Shown here: in pieces, positions 31,634 to 39,809 of the stretch | How the letters are laid out: each line of letters opens with the position of its first letter | How positions within the stretch are numbered: position 1 is the first letter of the stretch | Source of the DNA: Candidatus Cloacimonadota bacterium | GTDB lineage: Bacteria > Cloacimonadota > Cloacimonadia > G963667145 | Length of the DNA: 64,000 nt | Direction: 5' to 3' | NCBI GenBank assembly: GCA_963667255.1 | Contig: OY762940.1 | Location: forward strand, 556,510 to 620,509 | Notes under the pieces: model-generated | The model's input: the letters and a program-made list of their open reading frames with translations, nothing else | The model's database searches: none | What the model was told of the DNA's origin: nothing | Position numbers and translations under genes: made by a program

Positions 31634-33545
31634 ATCGAACAGCAGGGATATTATTCTTTTTGAAGGGAAATCTTACAATCCCGTAGTCGGCTCTTCGGTA
31701 ATTTCGGGGATTTTTGCCAATAAAGGCGGTAATATCAACCGCTACGATGCTGTGATGAGCACCATAAGCACAAAATACAAATCTCATTTTTTCAAGGGTG
31801 TCTATTCTTCGGCTGAATTGGAATTGAGATTGCGAGAGATAGACAATTTTTATCTTTATGTCAAAGCTATGTTGGAGAGGGTCGCAGAGCCGGGGCACGA
31901 ATGTTTTGACCTTTTGACTTCCGGAGACGCCAAGTCGTTTGCTCATTCTGTGGGGAGCATCGGTGGAGACAAGAGAAAACAAGCTTTTTTGAGTTATATT
32001 CAGGGTGTTTACTTTATAGGAAAATATGCTTTTAATTTGGCTATTCCCATGTTCGAAAAAGCTGTTCAGTTAGACCCGAATACTAATAAGTATCGAAGCG
32101 AGTTGGTGGCAACTTATATTAAGTTGGAAGATTTGAGCAAGGCTAAATCTATTGGTGAGAGCAGTCTTAATAATCAGGCTTCGACTTCCGATACATCTGA
32201 ATTAGCTGTAACTTATGCTTATTTGATGATTATCTACGCTAAACTGAAAGACTTTGAAAAAGCGATGATTTGCAAGAAGCGGGCAGAGAGTTTGGGGATT
32301 AATCAGGGAAAATACGAGTGGGACAATTTCCGCTATGCCAAAGTGCTGAAGCTGTTGGGCGACACTTTGTATTGCTGGGGACAATACGATTCGGCGAAGG
32401 CTTATTACAACAAGGCTCTGACTTTTAATTCGCGGATGATGGAGGCAAATCGCAGTGTTTTATTGGATTTGGATTTGATGTGTGCCAATTGTGATGTGTG
32501 GATGAAAACTGGTCGATTTGGCAAAGCTGAAGAGTATGTGAAAAAGGCTGAAAACTCTTTATATTCGCTATCTAATGGGAAATCTCTTCGTAAGGCTTGG
32601 GTTTTCTCTTTGAATGGGAAATTGCAAGAACTTCGTGGAGATTATTCGCAGGCTTGCGGATATTATCGAAGTGCAGTTGTTGAGCTGGAGGGGAGTGTGG
32701 GTCATTCCCATTTGTTGGCTGGAGTGATTTTTGCCGACTATGCCAGATGCAATGCCATAGGCGGTGTGGGTGATAGTGTTGGCGGTTCTCTTGCTAATAT
32801 CGTTTCAGCTTGTAAGGGTGGATTGGTATTTTCCGATGATGAAAAGTATAACAAATATTTTACTTGTGGCAGAGCGAAAAAAAATCTGAGAGATTATAGT
32901 TCTGCTGTCAAATATTATAAAAAAGCTCTGAGTAATTATGCGGATGAGTTTGGGAAATTTAGTTTCAAGGTGTTCACTGCTCAAAAATCGATTGCCAAGT
33001 GCTATTTGAAATTGGGCAAAACGAGCAAGGCGAAGAAATATATTTTGGCGGCTATCCAGACATATCAAGGGCTGTGTTTGCCAGATTATCCCGAATATGC
33101 AACTTTGCTTATGTTGTATGGAGATGTTTTGTTGGCGGACAAAACTCTGACTGAAGCGGTGAATTTTTATGAAAAAGCTCTGAAGATGTCTTCGCAAAAT
33201 TACGGTTCGGTAAATGCAATAACGGCAAAGGTTTATGAGGTTTTGAGCAATATCTATACCAAGCATGAGGTTTACGATAAGGCGATTTCCTATCTGAACG
33301 GAGTGCTTTCTTTCAAGAGTGGGCTGCATGGTGCACGCGAGCTGGATTTTGCTTCCGATTACCGTAGTTTGGCCTCGTTGTGGCACAAAAACGGGAATCT
33401 TACCAAAGCGAAAGAGTATTACTATAAGGTGTATCAAATCTATTTTAGGGATTTGGGCGTTTCTCACAAGGAGACCGAGTCTGCCAAAAGAGATTTTGAG
33501 AACATTTCGCAGGCATTGGAGAATAAGTCGTCTAAAAAGAAGTGA
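31620..33545 (+). CDS. Large TPR-repeat protein
   Basis: 641 aa with many TPR-like units (AKAYYNKAL, AVKYYKKAL, AVNFYEKAL, AKEYYYKVY). The GTG start overlaps the ispG end, and the start is uncertain. Confidence 0.7.
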   Translation: MGTSKSNSRDIILFEGKSYNPVVGSSVISGIFANKGGNINRYDAVMSTISTKYKSHFFKGVYSSAELELRLREIDNFYLYVKAMLERVAEPGHECFDLLTSGDAKSFAHSVGSIGGDKRKQAFLSYIQGVYFIGKYAFNLAIPMFEKAVQLDPNTNKYRSELVATYIKLEDLSKAKSIGESSLNNQASTSDTSELAVTYAYLMIIYAKLKDFEKAMICKKRAESLGINQGKYEWDNFRYAKVLKLLGDTLYCWGQYDSAKAYYNKALTFNSRMMEANRSVLLDLDLMCANCDVWMKTGRFGKAEEYVKKAENSLYSLSNGKSLRKAWVFSLNGKLQELRGDYSQACGYYRSAVVELEGSVGHSHLLAGVIFADYARCNAIGGVGDSVGGSLANIVSACKGGLVFSDDEKYNKYFTCGRAKKNLRDYSSAVKYYKKALSNYADEFGKFSFKVFTAQKSIAKCYLKLGKTSKAKKYILAAIQTYQGLCLPDYPEYATLLMLYGDVLLADKTLTEAVNFYEKALKMSSQNYGSVNAITAKVYEVLSNIYTKHEVYDKAISYLNGVLSFKSGLHGARELDFASDYRSLASLWHKNGNLTKAKEYYYKVYQIYFRDLGVSHKETESAKRDFENISQALENKSSKKK

Positions 33546-34228
33546 TGAAAAAAAAACTTTATTTCACTATTTGGGCGTTGATTTTTTTGACTTCGGGAAT
33601 TCCGTTTGTTCTCTATCCGTTGCTCTCTCCTATGAGAAAACTCAGAAATGCGGTTATCAGAGCGTTCGCTTTTTTTTATGCTCGCTTGAGCATCCTCGCT
33701 ACAGAGAGCAAATTTCAGATTGTGGGGAGAGAGAATCTGCCCGAGACGAATTTTCTGGCTGTTTGCAATCATCAGAACTTACTCGATATTCCCGTGATTA
33801 TTTGTGCTATTCCGCGGACAATTGGGTTTATTGCCAAGAGCGAGTTATACAAAGTGCCTATCTTGGCGATGTGGATGAGGCTGCTGGGATGTATTGGATT
33901 GAAACGGAGTAGTGCCAAGGCTTCCGCCGATGTTTTTCGTAAAGGCGTGAAGAAATTGAAATCCGGTCAAAATCTTATAGTGTTTCCAGAAGGAACTAGG
34001 AGCAGAGATGGCAAAATCAAGAAATTTAAAGCGGGAAGTTTCAAAATGGCTGTGTTAGCGGAAGTTCCGGTAGTGCCGATTACTTGCATAGGGACAAACA
34101 AGCTGTTTTCGCCAAACAATGTGATAAGAGTGATAATCAATCCTCCCGTGAGTTCTGCGGGCAAATCTACCAAAGAGTTGGCGGAAGAGGTGCAAAAGGT
34201 TGTGGAGAAGGGGTTGACGGTTAGTTGA
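33545..34228 (+). CDS. plsC: 1-acyl-sn-glycerol-3-phosphate acyltransferase
   Basis: Has the NHQNLLD (HX4D) and FPEGTRS acyltransferase motifs. The ATG at 33545 overlaps the upstream stop as TGATG. Confidence 0.85.
   Translation: MKKKLYFTIWALIFLTSGIPFVLYPLLSPMRKLRNAVIRAFAFFYARLSILATESKFQIVGRENLPETNFLAVCNHQNLLDIPVIICAIPRTIGFIAKSELYKVPILAMWMRLLGCIGLKRSSAKASADVFRKGVKKLKSGQNLIVFPEGTRSRDGKIKKFKAGSFKMAVLAEVPVVPITCIGTNKLFSPNNVIRVIINPPVSSAGKSTKELAEEVQKVVEKGLTVS
34162..34215 (+). repeat. Direct repeat copy 1 (within the plsC 3' coding end)
   Basis: The 54 nt match 36586-36639 with 2 mismatches. 34173-34215 is identical to 36597-36639 (43 nt). Confidence 0.95.
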
Positions 34229-34333
34229 AACGATTAACCTTCAATTTATTACTAATTTTATTTAGTTCTGTAAACTTCAACATCAGTAGATTACCCAAAT
34301 TACATATAGCCTTTGTTAGCGTTTCGTGCTTTT

Positions 34334-35113
34334 TTATTTCGGAGTTACTTGCCAAGTAATAGCGTCAAAGTTGAAATCTGAAAACAATTCATTTTGACTT
34401 ATTATTTTGACATCTCCACGCCTTGTTTCTCTGTTAAAATTGTAAACTCGGTAAATAAAGGCAGAATCTTCGTATTCCTCAAAAAAGTTTTTTTCATTTT
34501 TACTCATATAAAATGGTTGATTGAAATCACCGCTTGTAGTTTTAACTTCAATATAACGAGGAGAACCGTCATCATTTATCGAGGAAATATCATAACCTAA
34601 GCCATCTCCTTGTAATCGACTCAAATGCTGAACATTTTCCGTTGCTTTCGTTCTGTCTATTGAAAGAGCATCAATTAAGCGGTCAATTTCAAACTCTTTT
34701 ATAAATTCTTCACCTTGGTCGCCTATTTCATTATTTCGGTCTCTCACTTTTTCCCAATCAACTTTACGAGCAATAAAGCGTCTTGTTTTTCCCTTTATTT
34801 TTGTTACTTCCACAGGTTGAATAACCGTTTGTGAAATAGGGTTTAGCAGAGAGAATTTGGCAGGGAGTGAACTTTTGTTAACTACAAAACCTTCATCATA
34901 TGTCTTTATTGTTTCTCTTTGGTGAGCAACAATATTTCCTATCCGTTGAATGATAAGAACTTCGATTCGTGTTGTCGAGGGTATATTGTCCTCTTCACTA
35001 AATTCTAAAACTGTGTGTAAAAGTTGTTTTACTTCTGATGTGTTTAATTCACCATAAACGGTTAATAATGGTTTAATTGCCCGTCTTATTTCTGCTTCTG
35101 TATGTGCTGCCAT
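34334..35113 (-). CDS. DUF3883-domain protein (PD-(D/E)xK-like, candidate restriction endonuclease)
   Basis: The C-terminal region IGDQGEEF...GLGYDISS...YIEVKTTSG...FYMSKNEKNFF...FIYRVYNF matches the DUF3883/NO VEIN C-terminal pattern. It lies 9 nt downstream of the methylase gene. Confidence 0.7.
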   Translation of the reverse strand: MAAHTEAEIRRAIKPLLTVYGELNTSEVKQLLHTVLEFSEEDNIPSTTRIEVLIIQRIGNIVAHQRETIKTYDEGFVVNKSSLPAKFSLLNPISQTVIQPVEVTKIKGKTRRFIARKVDWEKVRDRNNEIGDQGEEFIKEFEIDRLIDALSIDRTKATENVQHLSRLQGDGLGYDISSINDDGSPRYIEVKTTSGDFNQPFYMSKNEKNFFEEYEDSAFIYRVYNFNRETRRGDVKIISQNELFSDFNFDAITWQVTPK

Positions 35114-35122
35114 TACTCTTTC

Positions 35123-36322
35123 TTAATAGTTCGTTATCATTAAATGTTCTGTCTCTCGGTTATTTCTATTCATAAAACTAACCAAATAGGTTTTGTCAAA
35201 CGATTGGATTTTTAATCCTTTGTTATTGTATAATTCAAAAATGAAATCAGTATTTTTAATTATCATCATCCATTTTGCTTTGCATTTATTGATAAGATAT
35301 TTCGCTAATCTTTCTTGGTCTTTTCTTGTAAACTCGTTTTTTGCATAAGTGCTAAACTCACTGTCGTATGGTGGGTCAAGAAAAACAAAGTCATTCTTCG
35401 AAGGATTGTGTTTATAAAAGAAATCTTCAAAATCTATATTCTCAATTATTGTACTGTCAAGTAAAGATTTTAGTTCTTTTGTTTTTAGATAATCAACTTT
35501 TTTGGAAAAGTTTTTTCGATTATAAGCAATTCCTCCATAAGGGACATTAAAATCACCGTTTGAATTATATCGAAACATTCCACTATAGGCGAAATTTCTA
35601 ATAAAAAGAAAGATAGCAGATTTAAAAGCGTTATTAATTCTATATTTTTCTGTGTTATTGTAGATGTGACGAAAATGCATATAGAAAGCACTTTTAAGTG
35701 CTGTTTCTATATTGTCTAAAATATCGTTATTTGGTAAAACTTGTTTGATTTTTTCAAGTTCCTTCATTCGTTTTATTTTACGAATTAGATTTATTTTAAT
35801 TTCTTTAATAAAGTTTTCAATATTGAAGTTGAAGATAGTAGAAAACATTCCATTAAATTCTTCAGCATGAGATAAAATAAATTCAAAAAGGATATCTTTT
35901 AATTTGGTTTCATCAATCAAGTCATCAGAATACTTTTTGTATGTTATTATAAAAAAATCTGAGTTTCTTTCAATTACGGAGGTCAGTAAATTCCAATTAT
36001 GTATAATCTCATCTACGGCTTTGAAAAAAAGTTGTTTATTACCATTTGTAATACTTTGATACAAATCAATTAACTCATCTGATTTGTCATTAATGTAGTA
36101 TTTGTTTGCTTGTAAAGCTGTGTACACAGCTCCACCTCCAACAAATGGCTCAAAATAGTTTTCAAATTTTTCGGGGAGATTAGGAACAATATATTTTAAT
36201 TCTTGTTCTTTTCCTCCAGCCCATTTTATAATTGGGTATAACCGTCTTGCCTTAACATAATTGCCTATACCTAATCCAATTTGGTTATAGGTTGCAACAG
36301 GTTCTTGTACTATATTATTCAT
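35123..36322 (-). CDS. Dam-family (alpha-class, D12) N6-adenine DNA methyltransferase
   Basis: Has KWAGGK, FxGxG (FEPFVGGGAVY), FRYNSNGDFNVPYG and DPPY (FVFLDPPYDSEF) in the alpha-class order. At 399 aa it has a long helical region between motif I and the FNVP motif. Confidence 0.85.
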   Translation of the reverse strand: MNNIVQEPVATYNQIGLGIGNYVKARRLYPIIKWAGGKEQELKYIVPNLPEKFENYFEPFVGGGAVYTALQANKYYINDKSDELIDLYQSITNGNKQLFFKAVDEIIHNWNLLTSVIERNSDFFIITYKKYSDDLIDETKLKDILFEFILSHAEEFNGMFSTIFNFNIENFIKEIKINLIRKIKRMKELEKIKQVLPNNDILDNIETALKSAFYMHFRHIYNNTEKYRINNAFKSAIFLFIRNFAYSGMFRYNSNGDFNVPYGGIAYNRKNFSKKVDYLKTKELKSLLDSTIIENIDFEDFFYKHNPSKNDFVFLDPPYDSEFSTYAKNEFTRKDQERLAKYLINKCKAKWMMIIKNTDFIFELYNNKGLKIQSFDKTYLVSFMNRNNRETEHLMITNY

Positions 36323-36465
36323 ATTACAAAGTTAATTTTTTCAAGTAATTAACAATGCTATTGTTGAAAAGTTGTCGGTTCTAAGCATGAACGCTAACAT
36401 CTGTATAAACTCAATGGTATTTATCCTTTCAAATTGGCATGCTAAGCGCAATTACATTTAGTTTT

Positions 36466-36556
36466 CTTTATATTTATTTCAAAATTTATTTGAGGCTAAA
36501 AATCCAAGAATATATGTCAAGCCAAAAATCTCAAATCCTAGATAAGCTCTCTAAAA
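36466..36556. repeat. 91-nt intergenic repeat, copy A
   Basis: 36466-36522 is identical to 38468-38524 (57 nt), and 36531-36556 is identical to 38534-38559 (26 nt). The two blocks are separated by an 8/9-nt variable patch. Confidence 0.95.
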
Positions 36557-36585
36557 CTTTTCCCGAAGATAGGGATTTCAGTATA

Positions 36586-36682
36586 CAAATCAACCCAAGA
36601 GTTGGCGGAAGAGGTGCAAAAGGTTGTGGAGAAGGGGTTAATTTTAAGTGAAGTTTCCCAATCCCCTATTTCAGTTTTGTAG
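36586..36682 (+). pseudogene. Detached duplicate of the plsC 3' terminus
   Basis: In the plsC-equivalent frame it reads KSTQELAEEVQKVVEKGLILSEVSQSPISVL*. The first 18 codons match the real plsC tail (KSTKELAEEVQKVVEKGL), with one synonymous and one K-to-Q change. No upstream coding continuation exists. Confidence 0.7.
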
Positions 36683-36708
36683 AGTTTGCAAAGAATACTT
36701 TGAAGAAT

Positions 36709-38187
36709 TTATTCTAAATAGATAATGCGGTCAGCAAGAGCAATAATTTCATCATTCTTTGGAGCAAGTTGTGCATCATTATTTTCTGCGATGAAACCAA
36801 TTATGTTAATATCTTGGTCAATTTGATATTGTTTCAATTCTTTAAATTTAACTGGCTCTTTAAATCCAAAATGTTCTAACTTATTTTCTTTGATGACACG
36901 CCCATCTAAATTCAACATTTCATAAAGCAAAGGAGAAATATAAGGATGTCTAATACAATTTGAAATCAAATTTGCATCAATAGATTCTTTGTATATGATT
37001 TCATCACCTTTTATTTTGTCTCTTATTATTTCAGAATTTTCTTGGTTAATTATTTCTGCAATTGTATGGACATTTTTATTTTCTTGTTCAATATTAAAAA
37101 CTGTTAGTACAGTTCGCATATCAACATTTTTTTGGGGTTCATTTCCTTGATACTCTGCAAATATAACAGCAAGGCTACAGTCACAAATATTAACTTTTCT
37201 CAATGTATCAATACTTGAATAATCGCCATTAAAATAAATAATTCCATTTAAGCTTGGGTTTTCTTTTTCAGTTACTAAAACAATTCTTTTAGAATAGAGT
37301 TTCTTGTTTTTCAATATTTCTTCGATTACTTTTGAAGTGGAGGATGTATATCCGCAAAGAACAATATGGTCTTTAATAGTTAGTTTCCCAAGTTTTCCTT
37401 TTTTAATGTTACTCATAATCTCTCCCGATTTAGTTGATATAGTAGAAATAAAAAAACTAATAAACGAAATATTTGCAATCAAAGTAAATGAAGAAAAAAT
37501 TTTGCCCATTACAGTAGTTGGGGCATCATCACATATCCCAACAAGTTTCAATGTATAATTTAAATAGTGAAAGTAAGAATTTGCATTACCTACCTGTGAT
37601 TCTGACAAAAATAGTGCAAATGAATTAATTATTACAATAAATAATGTTCCCAGTAAGAGAATAGCTATCAAAAAGTAGGATTCTTTGAAACTCCTTACTA
37701 AAATAGAAATATTTGAAAAAGATTTTTTTACTTTTAATAGTCTAATAAATTTTAAAAATTTAATAAACCTTAATAATCTACAGGTTCTAAAAAATCGAAG
37801 AAACCGAATAATTGGAATAAGAGAAACTAAATCGATAATTGGAAAGGGAGATAAAATCCATTTAACTTTATTTGTAATAGCATAGATTATAGAACCATCT
37901 TCGTCTTTTATATCTTCTATGAAATCGGAAGAAATATAAAAGCGAGTTAGATATTCAATAGCAAAGAATACTGTTAAGGAAGTATCTATATTGAATAAAT
38001 AATTCGGTAAGTTTAAATCTGAAAAAAATAATTCAAAAAATGTAGAAATAACAGAAATAAAAATAATAAGGAGCAAAATTAAATCTACATATACTCTTTT
38101 GGAATTATTTTCACTCTCTAACCACCAGTAAAGAAAGCCCTTTAATCCTTTTTGCTGTTTTTCCGCATATCTATCTAATTTTGACAT
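36709..38187 (-). CDS. Six-TM voltage-sensor-type ion channel with a C-terminal RCK/TrkA-N-like domain and a non-canonical pore
   Basis: S4-like segment RFLRFFRTCRLLRFIKFLKFIRLLK, with a basic residue every third position (9 of them). The pore-loop region is TLKLVGICDDAPTTVMGKIF, with GIC where K+ channels have GYG. After S6 comes HIVLCGYTSSTSKVIEEIL, a degenerate GxGxxG of RCK domains. Confidence 0.7.
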   Translation of the reverse strand: MSKLDRYAEKQQKGLKGFLYWWLESENNSKRVYVDLILLLIIFISVISTFFELFFSDLNLPNYLFNIDTSLTVFFAIEYLTRFYISSDFIEDIKDEDGSIIYAITNKVKWILSPFPIIDLVSLIPIIRFLRFFRTCRLLRFIKFLKFIRLLKVKKSFSNISILVRSFKESYFLIAILLLGTLFIVIINSFALFLSESQVGNANSYFHYLNYTLKLVGICDDAPTTVMGKIFSSFTLIANISFISFFISTISTKSGEIMSNIKKGKLGKLTIKDHIVLCGYTSSTSKVIEEILKNKKLYSKRIVLVTEKENPSLNGIIYFNGDYSSIDTLRKVNICDCSLAVIFAEYQGNEPQKNVDMRTVLTVFNIEQENKNVHTIAEIINQENSEIIRDKIKGDEIIYKESIDANLISNCIRHPYISPLLYEMLNLDGRVIKENKLEHFGFKEPVKFKELKQYQIDQDINIIGFIAENNDAQLAPKNDEIIALADRIIYLE

Positions 38188-38196
38188 TTACTATTT

Positions 38197-38457
38197 TTAA
38201 TAAAGTCCAATAATTTTACCAATAATAACGGGAATAGGTTGGTCATTTCGGTCGTAGGTGTTTGAAGAGTTAGCTCCAGATTTTGGTTTTACATGTGTTG
38301 CAGATACTTCCCAAGAATTTGAAGATGATGCTCCTGAGCGTGGTTTGATTTTCTTGCCGTCAAATTCCCAAGAATTTGATAGCAAGGCACCGCTTTTTGG
38401 TTTTAATTTTTTGCCGTCCCACAGCCAATCGCGTGGTAACTCAATTTTGTTAGCCAT
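38197..38457 (-). CDS. Small protein with three 19-aa tandem repeats, function unknown
   Basis: AAGGAAAAA lies 4 nt upstream of the ATG. The repeats are WLWDGKKLKPKSGALLSNS, WEFDGKKIKPRSGASSSNS and WEVSATHVKPKSGANSSNT, followed by a hydrophobic tail (IPVIIGKIIGLY). The stop is 9 nt from the channel start. Confidence 0.6.
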   Translation of the reverse strand: MANKIELPRDWLWDGKKLKPKSGALLSNSWEFDGKKIKPRSGASSSNSWEVSATHVKPKSGANSSNTYDRNDQPIPVIIGKIIGLY

Positions 38458-38467
38458 AAAATTTTTC

Positions 38468-38559
38468 CTTTATATTTATTTCAAAATTTATTTGAGGCTA
38501 AAAATCCAAGAATATATGTCAAGCAATAAGTCCTCAAATCCTAGATAAGCTCTCTAAAA
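38468..38559. repeat. 91-nt intergenic repeat, copy B
   Basis: See copy A. This copy lies between the Fic stop (38570) and the small-protein start (38457). It contains TTGACA on the minus strand 60 nt upstream of that start. Confidence 0.95.
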
Positions 38560-38569
38560 TTTTTTCTAT

Positions 38570-39532
38570 CTATGAAGGGCGATATCTATATTTGGTTAAT
38601 CTTTTCTCGCCTATTTTTATTAAGATTTTATTTTCGACTGCATTTTTCAGGTCGCGACTCGCTGTTGCAGAAGAAATATCTTTATTATGTCTCATATAAT
38701 CTTGACGCGAAAATTCATTGTTGCCAATAAAACTTTTGAATAATTCTATTCTATCTTTATCTGTTGGGCTCAATTGTTGGGTTCTCAACAAATCTTCAAG
38801 AGCGAAGTTAATGATTTCTAACATAAATTCTATAAAAAGGGTAGATTCTCCTAAGCTATTAGATTTTCCAAGAACATTGTAATAGTTCTGTTGTTTTTCT
38901 TTTATCAAAGTTTCAATTGGTAAAAATTCAAATACTGGGGAATACTCTTTTAAAATCACTGTTTGCCATAGTCTTCCCATTCTTCCGTTTCCATCAATGA
39001 ATGGATGGATGAATTCAAATTCGTAATGAAACACGCAACTCTTTATCAAGATAATGTCATTGTCGTTTTTTAAATAATCGAATAGATTTTTTAGTAAAGG
39101 GTAAACCATATCTCCAGGAGGAGCCAGATGTGCTAATTGATTTCCTTTTAAAATCCCAACTGCCGTATTTCTTATATTGCCAGCATTATCAACGAGGTTA
39201 TTCATCAGAATTTTGTGAGCCGAACAAAGTGACTTCATATCATAAACTTTGAATTTATTTAGATTTTTGTAAACATTGATGGCATTTTTTACCTCTATAA
39301 TATCTTTTTCAGGGGCTAAAACTTTTTTGTTGTCTAATAAATCCGTTATTTGCTCAATAGTCAGAGTGTTCCCTTCGATTTCTAAAGATGCTTGAATTGT
39401 TTTAATTCTGTTCTTTTTTCTAAGTTCTGTAGGGGGCTTTGTAAGACGAGCAGCCTTTATTTCTCCAATTTTTTCCGAAATGGAAGAGATTAAATTTAAA
39501 ATTTTGTTTGTTATTTTATAAGGAGGTTTCAT
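38570..39532 (-). CDS. Fic-family protein (class II, with N-terminal inhibitory motif and C-terminal wHTH)
   Basis: Active-site motif HPFIDGNGRMGRL, inhibitory-helix motif SLEIEGN ([ST]xxxE[GN]) near the N-terminus, and a C-terminal SSATASRDLKNAVENKILIKIG winged-helix-like segment. Confidence 0.9.
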   Translation of the reverse strand: MKPPYKITNKILNLISSISEKIGEIKAARLTKPPTELRKKNRIKTIQASLEIEGNTLTIEQITDLLDNKKVLAPEKDIIEVKNAINVYKNLNKFKVYDMKSLCSAHKILMNNLVDNAGNIRNTAVGILKGNQLAHLAPPGDMVYPLLKNLFDYLKNDNDIILIKSCVFHYEFEFIHPFIDGNGRMGRLWQTVILKEYSPVFEFLPIETLIKEKQQNYYNVLGKSNSLGESTLFIEFMLEIINFALEDLLRTQQLSPTDKDRIELFKSFIGNNEFSRQDYMRHNKDISSATASRDLKNAVENKILIKIGEKRLTKYRYRPS

Positions 39533-39544
39533 TTTTCCAAGTAA

Positions 39545-39570
39545 GTGATAGTATCATATGATACCATCAC
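39545..39570. promoter_or_regulatory. 26-bp near-perfect palindrome in the Fic leader (operator or RNA hairpin)
   Basis: GTGATAGTATCAT|ATGATACCATCAC matches on 12 of 13 positions per half-site. It is centred 25 nt upstream of the Fic start codon. Confidence 0.5.
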
Positions 39571-39809
39571 TCGTCACTAATTGTTTTGATTTTTTCATTT
39601 TAATTGCTCTATATACCCTTTATTTAATCTATAGTAAAAAATTATGGCTATTGGTCAAGCAAAAACAAGTTGATAGTGTTAAAAATTCAAAGTAATTTTT
39701 CGTCTAAATTTTAATCAGCAAATCTTATTTCCTCTTGCTAATCACGCTGTTTCCCACAATCAATAAAAAAAAGACTTGCTTGGATGAACCGTGCTAATTT
39801 CCTGTCTCT

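Follow-up and report, generated by a model that had tools for sequence, protein, structure and literature searches.

A 64,000-nucleotide (nt) stretch of the genome of a Candidatus Cloacimonadota bacterium (GCA_963667255.1, contig OY762940.1), hereafter the window, shows at base-pair resolution two unrelated defence-type operons accumulating at a single core-gene hotspot with no local integrase or transposase. One operon is a restriction-modification (R-M) cassette, and the other consists of an ion-channel gene and a small gene for a protein of 86 amino acids (aa). The two stand in tandem downstream of the acyltransferase gene plsC and are bordered by two interleaved pairs of repeats: the tail of plsC (T1 on the left, T2 on the right) and a 100-nt element (copy A on the left, copy B on the right). 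Each repeat has only these two copies in the genome. From this arrangement we infer that two versions of one hotspot existed and that one recombination, whether unequal, one-sided or of Campbell type, stacked them, an account to which we assign an even chance of being correct. Throughout, plain coordinates are positions in the window. G000 denotes the genome analysed here, a single-contig metagenome-assembled genome (MAG) of 1,587,896 bp; C1 followed by a number is a position in G000, and G001-G005 are sister species, of which G001 is the closest.

Interleaved repeats at the plsC/LytR_C site

The island between plsC and LytR_C (our shorthand for the LytR_C-domain gene at its right side) extends from 34229 to about 39725. 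Over these 5.5 kb its composition is foreign, with a guanine-plus-cytosine (GC) fraction of 0.24-0.34 compared with 0.40-0.45 in the flanks. All island genes are of defence type and lie on the minus strand, while the flanking plsC, LytR_C, rsfS and argS genes lie on the plus strand. From left to right the locus comprises plsC with T1, a NOV_C nuclease gene, a D12 methylase gene, copy A, a short joint, T2, the channel gene, the 86-aa gene, copy B, Fic, LytR_C, rsfS and argS (Table 1). An earlier reading of the window, made from the sequence alone (the sequence-only reading), had described the tail and element pairs as interleaved, and their order is exactly as it described.

Copies A and B are 94% identical over 101 nt with one 1-nt indel (BLAST). 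The sequence-only reading had delimited them as a 91-nt repeat in which 57 identical nt (36466-36522 = 38468-38524) and 26 identical nt surround an 8/9-nt patch, and these runs are exact; the patch holds three substitutions and the indel. It had also proposed looking for further copies of the element. When copy B was compared with the whole of G000 by BLAST, it matched itself at E 1.3e-47 and A at E 2.8e-38, and every other match had E >= 0.04. Similarly, a profile built from A and B recovered these two alone, at E about 1e-41 and 1e-40, with the next match at E 1.4. The element is therefore restricted to A and B and is not dispersed genome-wide. No copy of the element or of the plsC-tail repeat turned up in 232 Cloacimonadota genomes or in the scanned collections of genome contigs (for the element, with its 33-nt core), viral contigs, plasmids and phages, and the element was also absent from the surroundings of homologues of the 86-aa protein and of Fic. 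A degenerate third copy suggested upstream of Fic, at 39616-39660, did not stand out from chance (p 0.09-0.44) and was missing from the genome-wide profile matches at E <= 100.

The sequence-only reading had further proposed that the element doubles as a portable promoter or leader. The motifs it cited are all present: TTGACA is found in the element, AAGGAAAAA ahead of the 86-aa gene, and an ATG-TAA beside copy A. The proposed role is nevertheless unsupported, though not refuted. The TTGACA has no acceptable -10 at 16-18 nt, and a sigma-70 scan returned 33 sites against 28.9 +/- 5.9 in shuffles, which is not above background. Folding of both copies on both strands gave z-scores of +0.35 to +1.44 with no stable or attC-like hairpin, no Rfam match was obtained at E <= 1, and no other copy exists in the genome. 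The ATG-TAA (36457-36452, minus strand), which had been matched to the 86-aa start codon, in fact opens a separate, conserved small open reading frame (ORF) that belongs to the R-M cassette. This is the head ORF, whose copy in the window has a stop at codon 2.

The two plsC tails are identical at 52 of 54 positions, with an identical run of 43 nt; in a genome search the second copy scored E 3.5e-19, and G000 contains only these two. T1 continues into a C-terminus, ...GLTVS*, which has the same length as the ...DLVVY* of G001 and resembles it. In T2, similarity to plsC breaks off sharply 13 nt short of the stop position, and the fragment carries a K->Q change where all six species have K. The right-hand contexts of T1 and T2 thus differ, as would be expected for two alleles. 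The joint between copy A and T2 measures 24 nt (36562-36585) by the extended repeat ends or 29 nt (36557-36585) by the ends of the 91-nt element. It shows no similarity to the plsC sequence upstream of T1, and a tentatively suggested resemblance to the 3' end of Fic yielded a local alignment score of 13 with a shuffle p of 0.31. A 70-aa ORF that spans the dead plsC fragment and the element (36439-36651) is spurious.

Copy A thus repeats sequence found to its right, T2 repeats sequence found to its left, and the joint between them is unique; a tandem or Campbell product would be expected to contain just such a new junction. In addition, the block between T1 and T2 has on its left the native-like 3' end of plsC, the sequence that follows it and a terminator-like hairpin, and on its right a copy of the resident element, which means that its former address was this same locus. 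This points to another version of the locus as the donor.

Comparison with related genomes indicates that the plsC/LytR_C interval is a defence-cargo hotspot in this clade, because it is empty in G002-G005 and carries different cargo in G001. In G002-G005, which are other species with plsC 58-63% identical, LytR_C-rsfS-argS follows within about 140 nt of plsC. The hotspot of G001 is split by an inversion that separates its plsC half from its LytR_C half. In the plsC half (L039, 8465-11409), plsC is followed by convergent genes for a Shedu nuclease, an Ion_trans channel and a PDC-S01 ATPase (PADLOC), and the half ends at a tRNA gene. In the LytR_C half (L113, 7302-9384), an R-M pair consisting of a C5 methylase and an NgoFVII-type nuclease precedes LytR_C. 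An ion-channel gene is therefore among the defence genes of the site in both G000 and G001, the two being 29% identical. A duplication of the plsC tail was sought in G001 and none was found.

Table 1. Features of the island and of related cassettes. Coordinates are window positions unless preceded by C1.
Feature	Position	Strand	Evidence
plsC (1-acyl-sn-glycerol-3-phosphate acyltransferase), core gene, island left edge	33545..34228	+	Pfam Acyltransferase E 6e-33; syntenic in 5/5 sister species
Tail copy T1, plsC codons about -22 to -5, then native-like last 4 codons and stop	34162..34215	+	Repeat search; C-terminus comparison
Terminator-like hairpin over plsC stop; absent after T2	34219..34248	+	Promoter/terminator scan
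Left arm of imperfect inverted repeat bounding R-M cassette (TTGTTAGCGTTTCGTGCT)	34314..34331		Best inverted match to head region, shuffle p 0.06; suggestive only
Candidate restriction nuclease, NOV_C/DUF3883 type	34334..35113	-	Pfam NOV_C E 5.6e-16; PADLOC PDC-S36 1.2e-34, PD-T4-1 5e-20
D12-class N6-adenine DNA methyltransferase	35123..36322	-	Pfam MethyltransfD12 2.1e-33; PADLOC MTase_II 2.2e-57
Degenerate head small ORF (M-stop-LRLACQFERINTIEFIQML...), 5' edge of R-M cassette	36341..36457	-	tblastn, alignments, cargo annotation
Right arm of imperfect inverted repeat, inside head ORF	36382-36400		Inverted match to left arm
100-nt element copy A (earlier 91-nt core 36466-36556)	36462..36561		Repeat search; BLAST E 2.8e-38; nhmmer
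Joint, unique sequence	36562..36585		blastn-short: self match only in G000
Tail copy T2, 54-nt internal plsC-tail fragment, non-coding, abrupt ends both sides	36586..36639	+	Repeat search; no start codon
Ion channel, six-transmembrane Ion_trans and RCK/TrkA_N domain	36709..38187	-	Pfam Ion_trans 5e-10, Slo-like_RCK 3.3e-12; no PADLOC match
86-aa triple-repeat protein, 9 nt upstream of channel gene	38197..38457	-	ORF
100-nt element copy B	38464..38564		Repeat search; BLAST; nhmmer
Fic (SoFic-like), gene 38570-39532, with palindromic operator	38570..39570	-	Pfam Fic 3.9e-19; PADLOC SoFic 7e-44
Island right edge, approximate	39725..39745		Sequence from here aligns with relatives' LytR_C upstream (MAFFT: G001, ctg10958l, G002, G003); GC step
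Head cassette: helix-turn-helix protein, two N6_N4 methylases, 418-aa protein	C1:249973	+	Cargo annotation
Head cassette: DUF6144, YhcG nuclease, zeta-toxin-like kinase	C1:306082	+	Cargo annotation
Head cassette: PLD-like protein, D12 methylase, N6_N4 methylase	C1:485460	-	Cargo annotation

Proposed stacking of two alleles and its alternatives

According to the account we favour, the population would once have held at least two versions of the plsC-LytR_C/rsfS hotspot with imported low-GC defence-type genes. Version 1 would have comprised, in order, plsC with the native end, the terminator-like hairpin, the R-M cassette and the 100-nt element. Version 2 would have comprised, in order, a plsC whose last few codons were altered, the channel and 86-aa genes, the 100-nt element and Fic. 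In one event, version 1, reaching a few dozen bases beyond its element, would have become fused to version 2 at a site 67 nt ahead of the plsC stop codon. Its product would carry both cargos in tandem, with a dead 54-nt plsC fragment and a second element flanking the 24-29-nt joint. Possible routes are unequal crossing-over of two chromosomes, the one-sided homologous and otherwise illegitimate joining of incoming DNA (homology-facilitated illegitimate recombination), and the Campbell integration of a circularised fragment via the tail or the element; no dedicated recombinase would take part in any of them. These routes lead to the same product and are indistinguishable from the layout. This bears on the Campbell crossover named by the sequence-only reading: its geometry, the variable cargo site and the same-locus donor speak for it, but the other routes, and also a local duplication followed by losses, give the same layout, and its circular intermediate is hypothetical. 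The identity runs of 43 nt in the tail and 57 nt in the element would suffice for rare RecA-dependent loop-out. Recombination between the tails would remove the R-M block and recombination between the elements the channel block, each regenerating a single-cargo allele. Were the two single-cargo alleles to be found, the locus would offer a clear-cut natural case, from the uncultured phylum Cloacimonadota, in which general recombination stacked two alleles.

Several observations weigh against this account. The repeat copies differ by 4-6%, which may reflect two alleles or simply age. The joint matches nothing else in the genome and yields no clue to the right flank of the donor. G000 is a metagenome-assembled genome, and the collections searched contained no conspecific genome or contig, and among them no single-cargo allele. 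Exact look-ups with plsC (under two start choices) and Fic returned no other strain of the species, and a metagenome scan with plsC gave nothing beyond relatives at <=45% identity. The 90% clusters of plsC, the nuclease, the methylase and the channel each have one member, and contigs that carry the relatives' rsfS or 409-aa neighbour gene proved to be G001-like strains that are arranged otherwise. Finally, a scar of similar form exists at the SMR (small multidrug resistance) locus of G000 between genes that are already adjacent in G001. Here, the tail of the SMR gene recurs 3.6 kb downstream of that gene as a 161-nt copy with 98.8% identity (C1:110956-111116; C1:114443-114779). A 13-nt spacer separates this copy from a preceding 162-nt fragment of a 302-aa gene, which is absent from G000 and is found 1.7 kb further on in G001, where the intervening genes have the same order without the scar. 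The SMR scar flanks no new cargo relative to G001, and therefore such junctions can arise in this genome without the stacking of alternative cargos. For the same reason, tail duplication was rejected as a general insertion signature in G000, and the SMR example is not used here as support.

The SMR scar keeps alive a rival in which a single lineage, with no second allele, produced the locus, either by tandem duplication of the segment from the plsC tail to the element followed by reciprocal deletions that left each copy with one cargo, or by insertion of the R-M genes with templated patches filling the junction, copied from B (about 2 kb rightward) and from the plsC tail (about 2.4 kb leftward). 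T2 and A do look like patches, ending abruptly on both sides, and the R-M cassette resembles a discrete unit with its head ORF and imperfect inverted repeat. However, the duplication route needs at least three clean events and by itself leaves unexplained why T1 has a native-like end when T2 continues differently, and templated patching would be unusual at lengths of 54 and 100 nt and with 4-6% mismatch. We therefore regard a single-lineage origin as rather unlikely. That the locus is an assembly artefact, with two coexisting strain haplotypes concatenated, is highly improbable in our estimation. The single-contig MAG and the allele-like appearance of the two units would fit such an error, but the shared flanks of only 54 and 100 nt are far below read-overlap lengths, and the unique joint would not be made by simple concatenation. 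Moreover, A and B, like T1 and T2, differ by 4-6% and therefore do not result from assembly collapse or exact duplication, and comparable structures are known in isolate genomes (PMC2853133).

A further alternative is a site-specific cassette system, in which the plsC tail or the element-joint-tail segment would be an attachment (att) site and circles would enter via a recombinase encoded elsewhere. The duplicated 3' end of a conserved gene around an insert is a classic att signature, and the site has been used repeatedly in G000 and G001. Yet no integrase or transposase gene is present in the island, and the genome has just two PF00589 (tyrosine recombinase) matches, both distant from the locus, one at C1:77 kb and one at C1:1.56 Mb (the search did not extend to serine recombinases). 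In addition, the right edge of the island (39533-39745) has no third tail copy, and the left junctions differ, since the R-M cargo starts after the terminator-like hairpin and the channel cargo 13 nt inside plsC. In contrast to att-flanked islands, the same core is thus not found at every junction, the cargo junctions differing by at least 13 nt. G001 lacks a tail duplication, and the element has no hairpin potential and is found nowhere else. The distant recombinases, the lack of a hairpin and of a third tail, and the unlike left junctions therefore make a site-specific system very unlikely. In annotation, both the plsC remnant and the repeated element could be taken for att sites.

Cargo genes and the head ORF

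The head ORF that fronts the R-M cassette has four copies in G000, three of them intact and the copy in the window broken, and each marks the 5' boundary of a low-GC cassette running in the same direction; three of these four cassettes are R-M systems. The consensus of the head is MQLRLACQFG.INTIEFIQ.L, and its products range from 25 to 66 aa with variable tails. In a different Cloacimonadota genome (G007; L126:1230-1430, minus strand), a Fic gene is preceded by a relative, and about 14 metagenomic small proteins share a MIKEKYNQWRLSYQIGRIRTIGYIHKL start followed by variable tails, one of them encoded 4 nt before a hydrolase gene. The head has no Pfam or Rfam match. Changes are distributed 79/90/110 over the three codon positions, which is only a mild third-position excess, and codon differences comprise 54 synonymous and 134 non-synonymous ones, so that the conserved object may be either the peptide or the DNA. 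A portable leader may exist, in which case it would be the head ORF and not the 91-nt element. The presence of this undescribed ORF at four low-GC cassettes may merit separate study.

The imperfect inverted repeat that bounds the R-M cassette has the core GTTAGCG, and a comparable pair occurs in the C1:485460 cassette at the corresponding position of the head; each match is only weakly significant (p 0.06 and 0.15). The sequence TTGTTAGCG also occurs 9 nt past the plsC stop in G001 (L039, about 11386). A homologue of the methylase found elsewhere in the phylum (G054) was considered as a comparator and proved uninformative, as it is paired with an HNH nuclease beside an IS200-type gene and its flanks are not shared.

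The 86-aa protein encoded ahead of the channel has ten metagenomic homologues, 51-75% identical, which occur in unrelated contexts and never with a channel gene or the element. Their neighbours include genes for a HAD-PNKP phosphatase, for 195- and 291-aa proteins of unknown function and for toxin-antitoxin pairs.

Fic and the palindrome upstream of it (GATAGTATCATATGATACCATC), which together occupy 38582-39567, share 78-81% DNA identity with Fic loci found on contigs of other organisms (L107-L110), and the named Fic relatives in the protein search belong to Bacteroidales. This similarity suggests that Fic and its operator were recently transferred laterally as one module. The 100-nt element is not part of that module, because the matching Fic loci on the other contigs lack it.

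Relation to known systems and other duplicated scars

Pan-genome studies of E. coli and Pseudomonas have described defence islands at core-gene hotspots without mobility genes. The plsC/LytR_C site is similar in that variable defence content lies between two conserved core genes and the cargo differs in related genomes. It differs from the sites in such surveys in that the junction scar of one stacking event, which is rarely resolved there, would be preserved here. In staphylococci, composite staphylococcal cassette chromosome (SCC) islands at rlmH (orfX) are assembled by dedicated Ccr serine recombinases at a fixed short core. As in those islands, differing cargos are arranged in tandem and parted by the repeated 3' end of a conserved gene. 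Unlike in SCC, there is no fixed core in our locus, and no recombinase was found (serine recombinases, again, were outside the search).

Integron arrays offer a further comparison, since promoterless or short-leader cargos are also lined up with a repeated element between them. In contrast to integrons, the island and its flanks contain no intI-type integrase, and the element lies 5' of the cargos, has two copies and forms no attC-like hairpin. One could imagine an integrase-free version, in which the plsC tail and the element are homology addresses of a cassette array whose cargos are shuffled and stacked by general recombination in an integron-like manner, with the head perhaps providing an expression leader. 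If this were true, cargo would circle out via host RecA and re-enter genomes of the species that carry the tail or the element. We consider such an array improbable.

Insertion of R-M genes "with long target duplication" was reportedly described by Nobusato et al. 2000. R-M genes inserted with target duplications of >30 bp, having low GC, lacking mobility genes and overlapping gene 3' ends, have been documented (Furuta, Abe & Kobayashi 2010, PMC2853133). The insertion at plsC shares most of these properties. Homologues of both R and M genes lie between T1 and T2, the nuclease function being predicted from sequence similarity. The insert of 2370 nt is well within the <20 kb used to define such insertions and has no mobile-element genes, and the direct repeat of 54 nt exceeds the 30-bp threshold, is otherwise single-copy and overlaps a gene 3' end. 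The genomes with one tail and an empty site available for comparison are, however, other species (G002-G005) and not strains. A further difference is that the insert at plsC carries a 100-nt copy of the resident element found past the neighbouring cargo, with two repeat pairs interleaved and two cargos stacked.

For type VI secretion system (T6SS) and Rhs arrays, a combination of one-sided homologous and illegitimate recombination has been proposed (Kirchberger et al. 2017, PMC5361080). The plsC locus resembles these displacement arrays in its proposed entry by homology in a conserved gene, in the proposed illegitimate join on the opposite side and in the retention of older modules downstream; in both, a relic of the end of the conserved gene precedes each module and an integrase is lacking. 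The two differ in that the anchor here is the housekeeping gene plsC and that no more than two units exist, whose cargos are operons of defence type, unrelated to each other and encoded on the strand opposite to plsC. Most likely, the two cargos at plsC were joined by one recombination between two versions of the locus, a known, integrase-free route of gene accumulation that fits the R-M pattern of insertion with long target duplication.

Other repeats were observed elsewhere in G000. Two presumed insertion sequences are spread through the genome, one of 1.1 kb with more than ten near-identical copies and one of 1.3 kb with several, and none of these lies in or beside the island. At a polysaccharide locus, a very low-GC block of glf (UDP-galactopyranose mutase) and a DUF4422 gene is flanked by two copies (C1:722823-722893 and C1:724869-724939; 71 nt, 91.5%) of the start region of rmlD, covering its ribosome-binding site and 15 codons, which makes this a head-side analogue of the tail duplication. 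A 105-nt leader that includes the start codon is likewise duplicated 836 nt apart around an NTase_sub_bind (HEPN-like) gene (C1:1539543-1539647 and C1:1540379-1540484).

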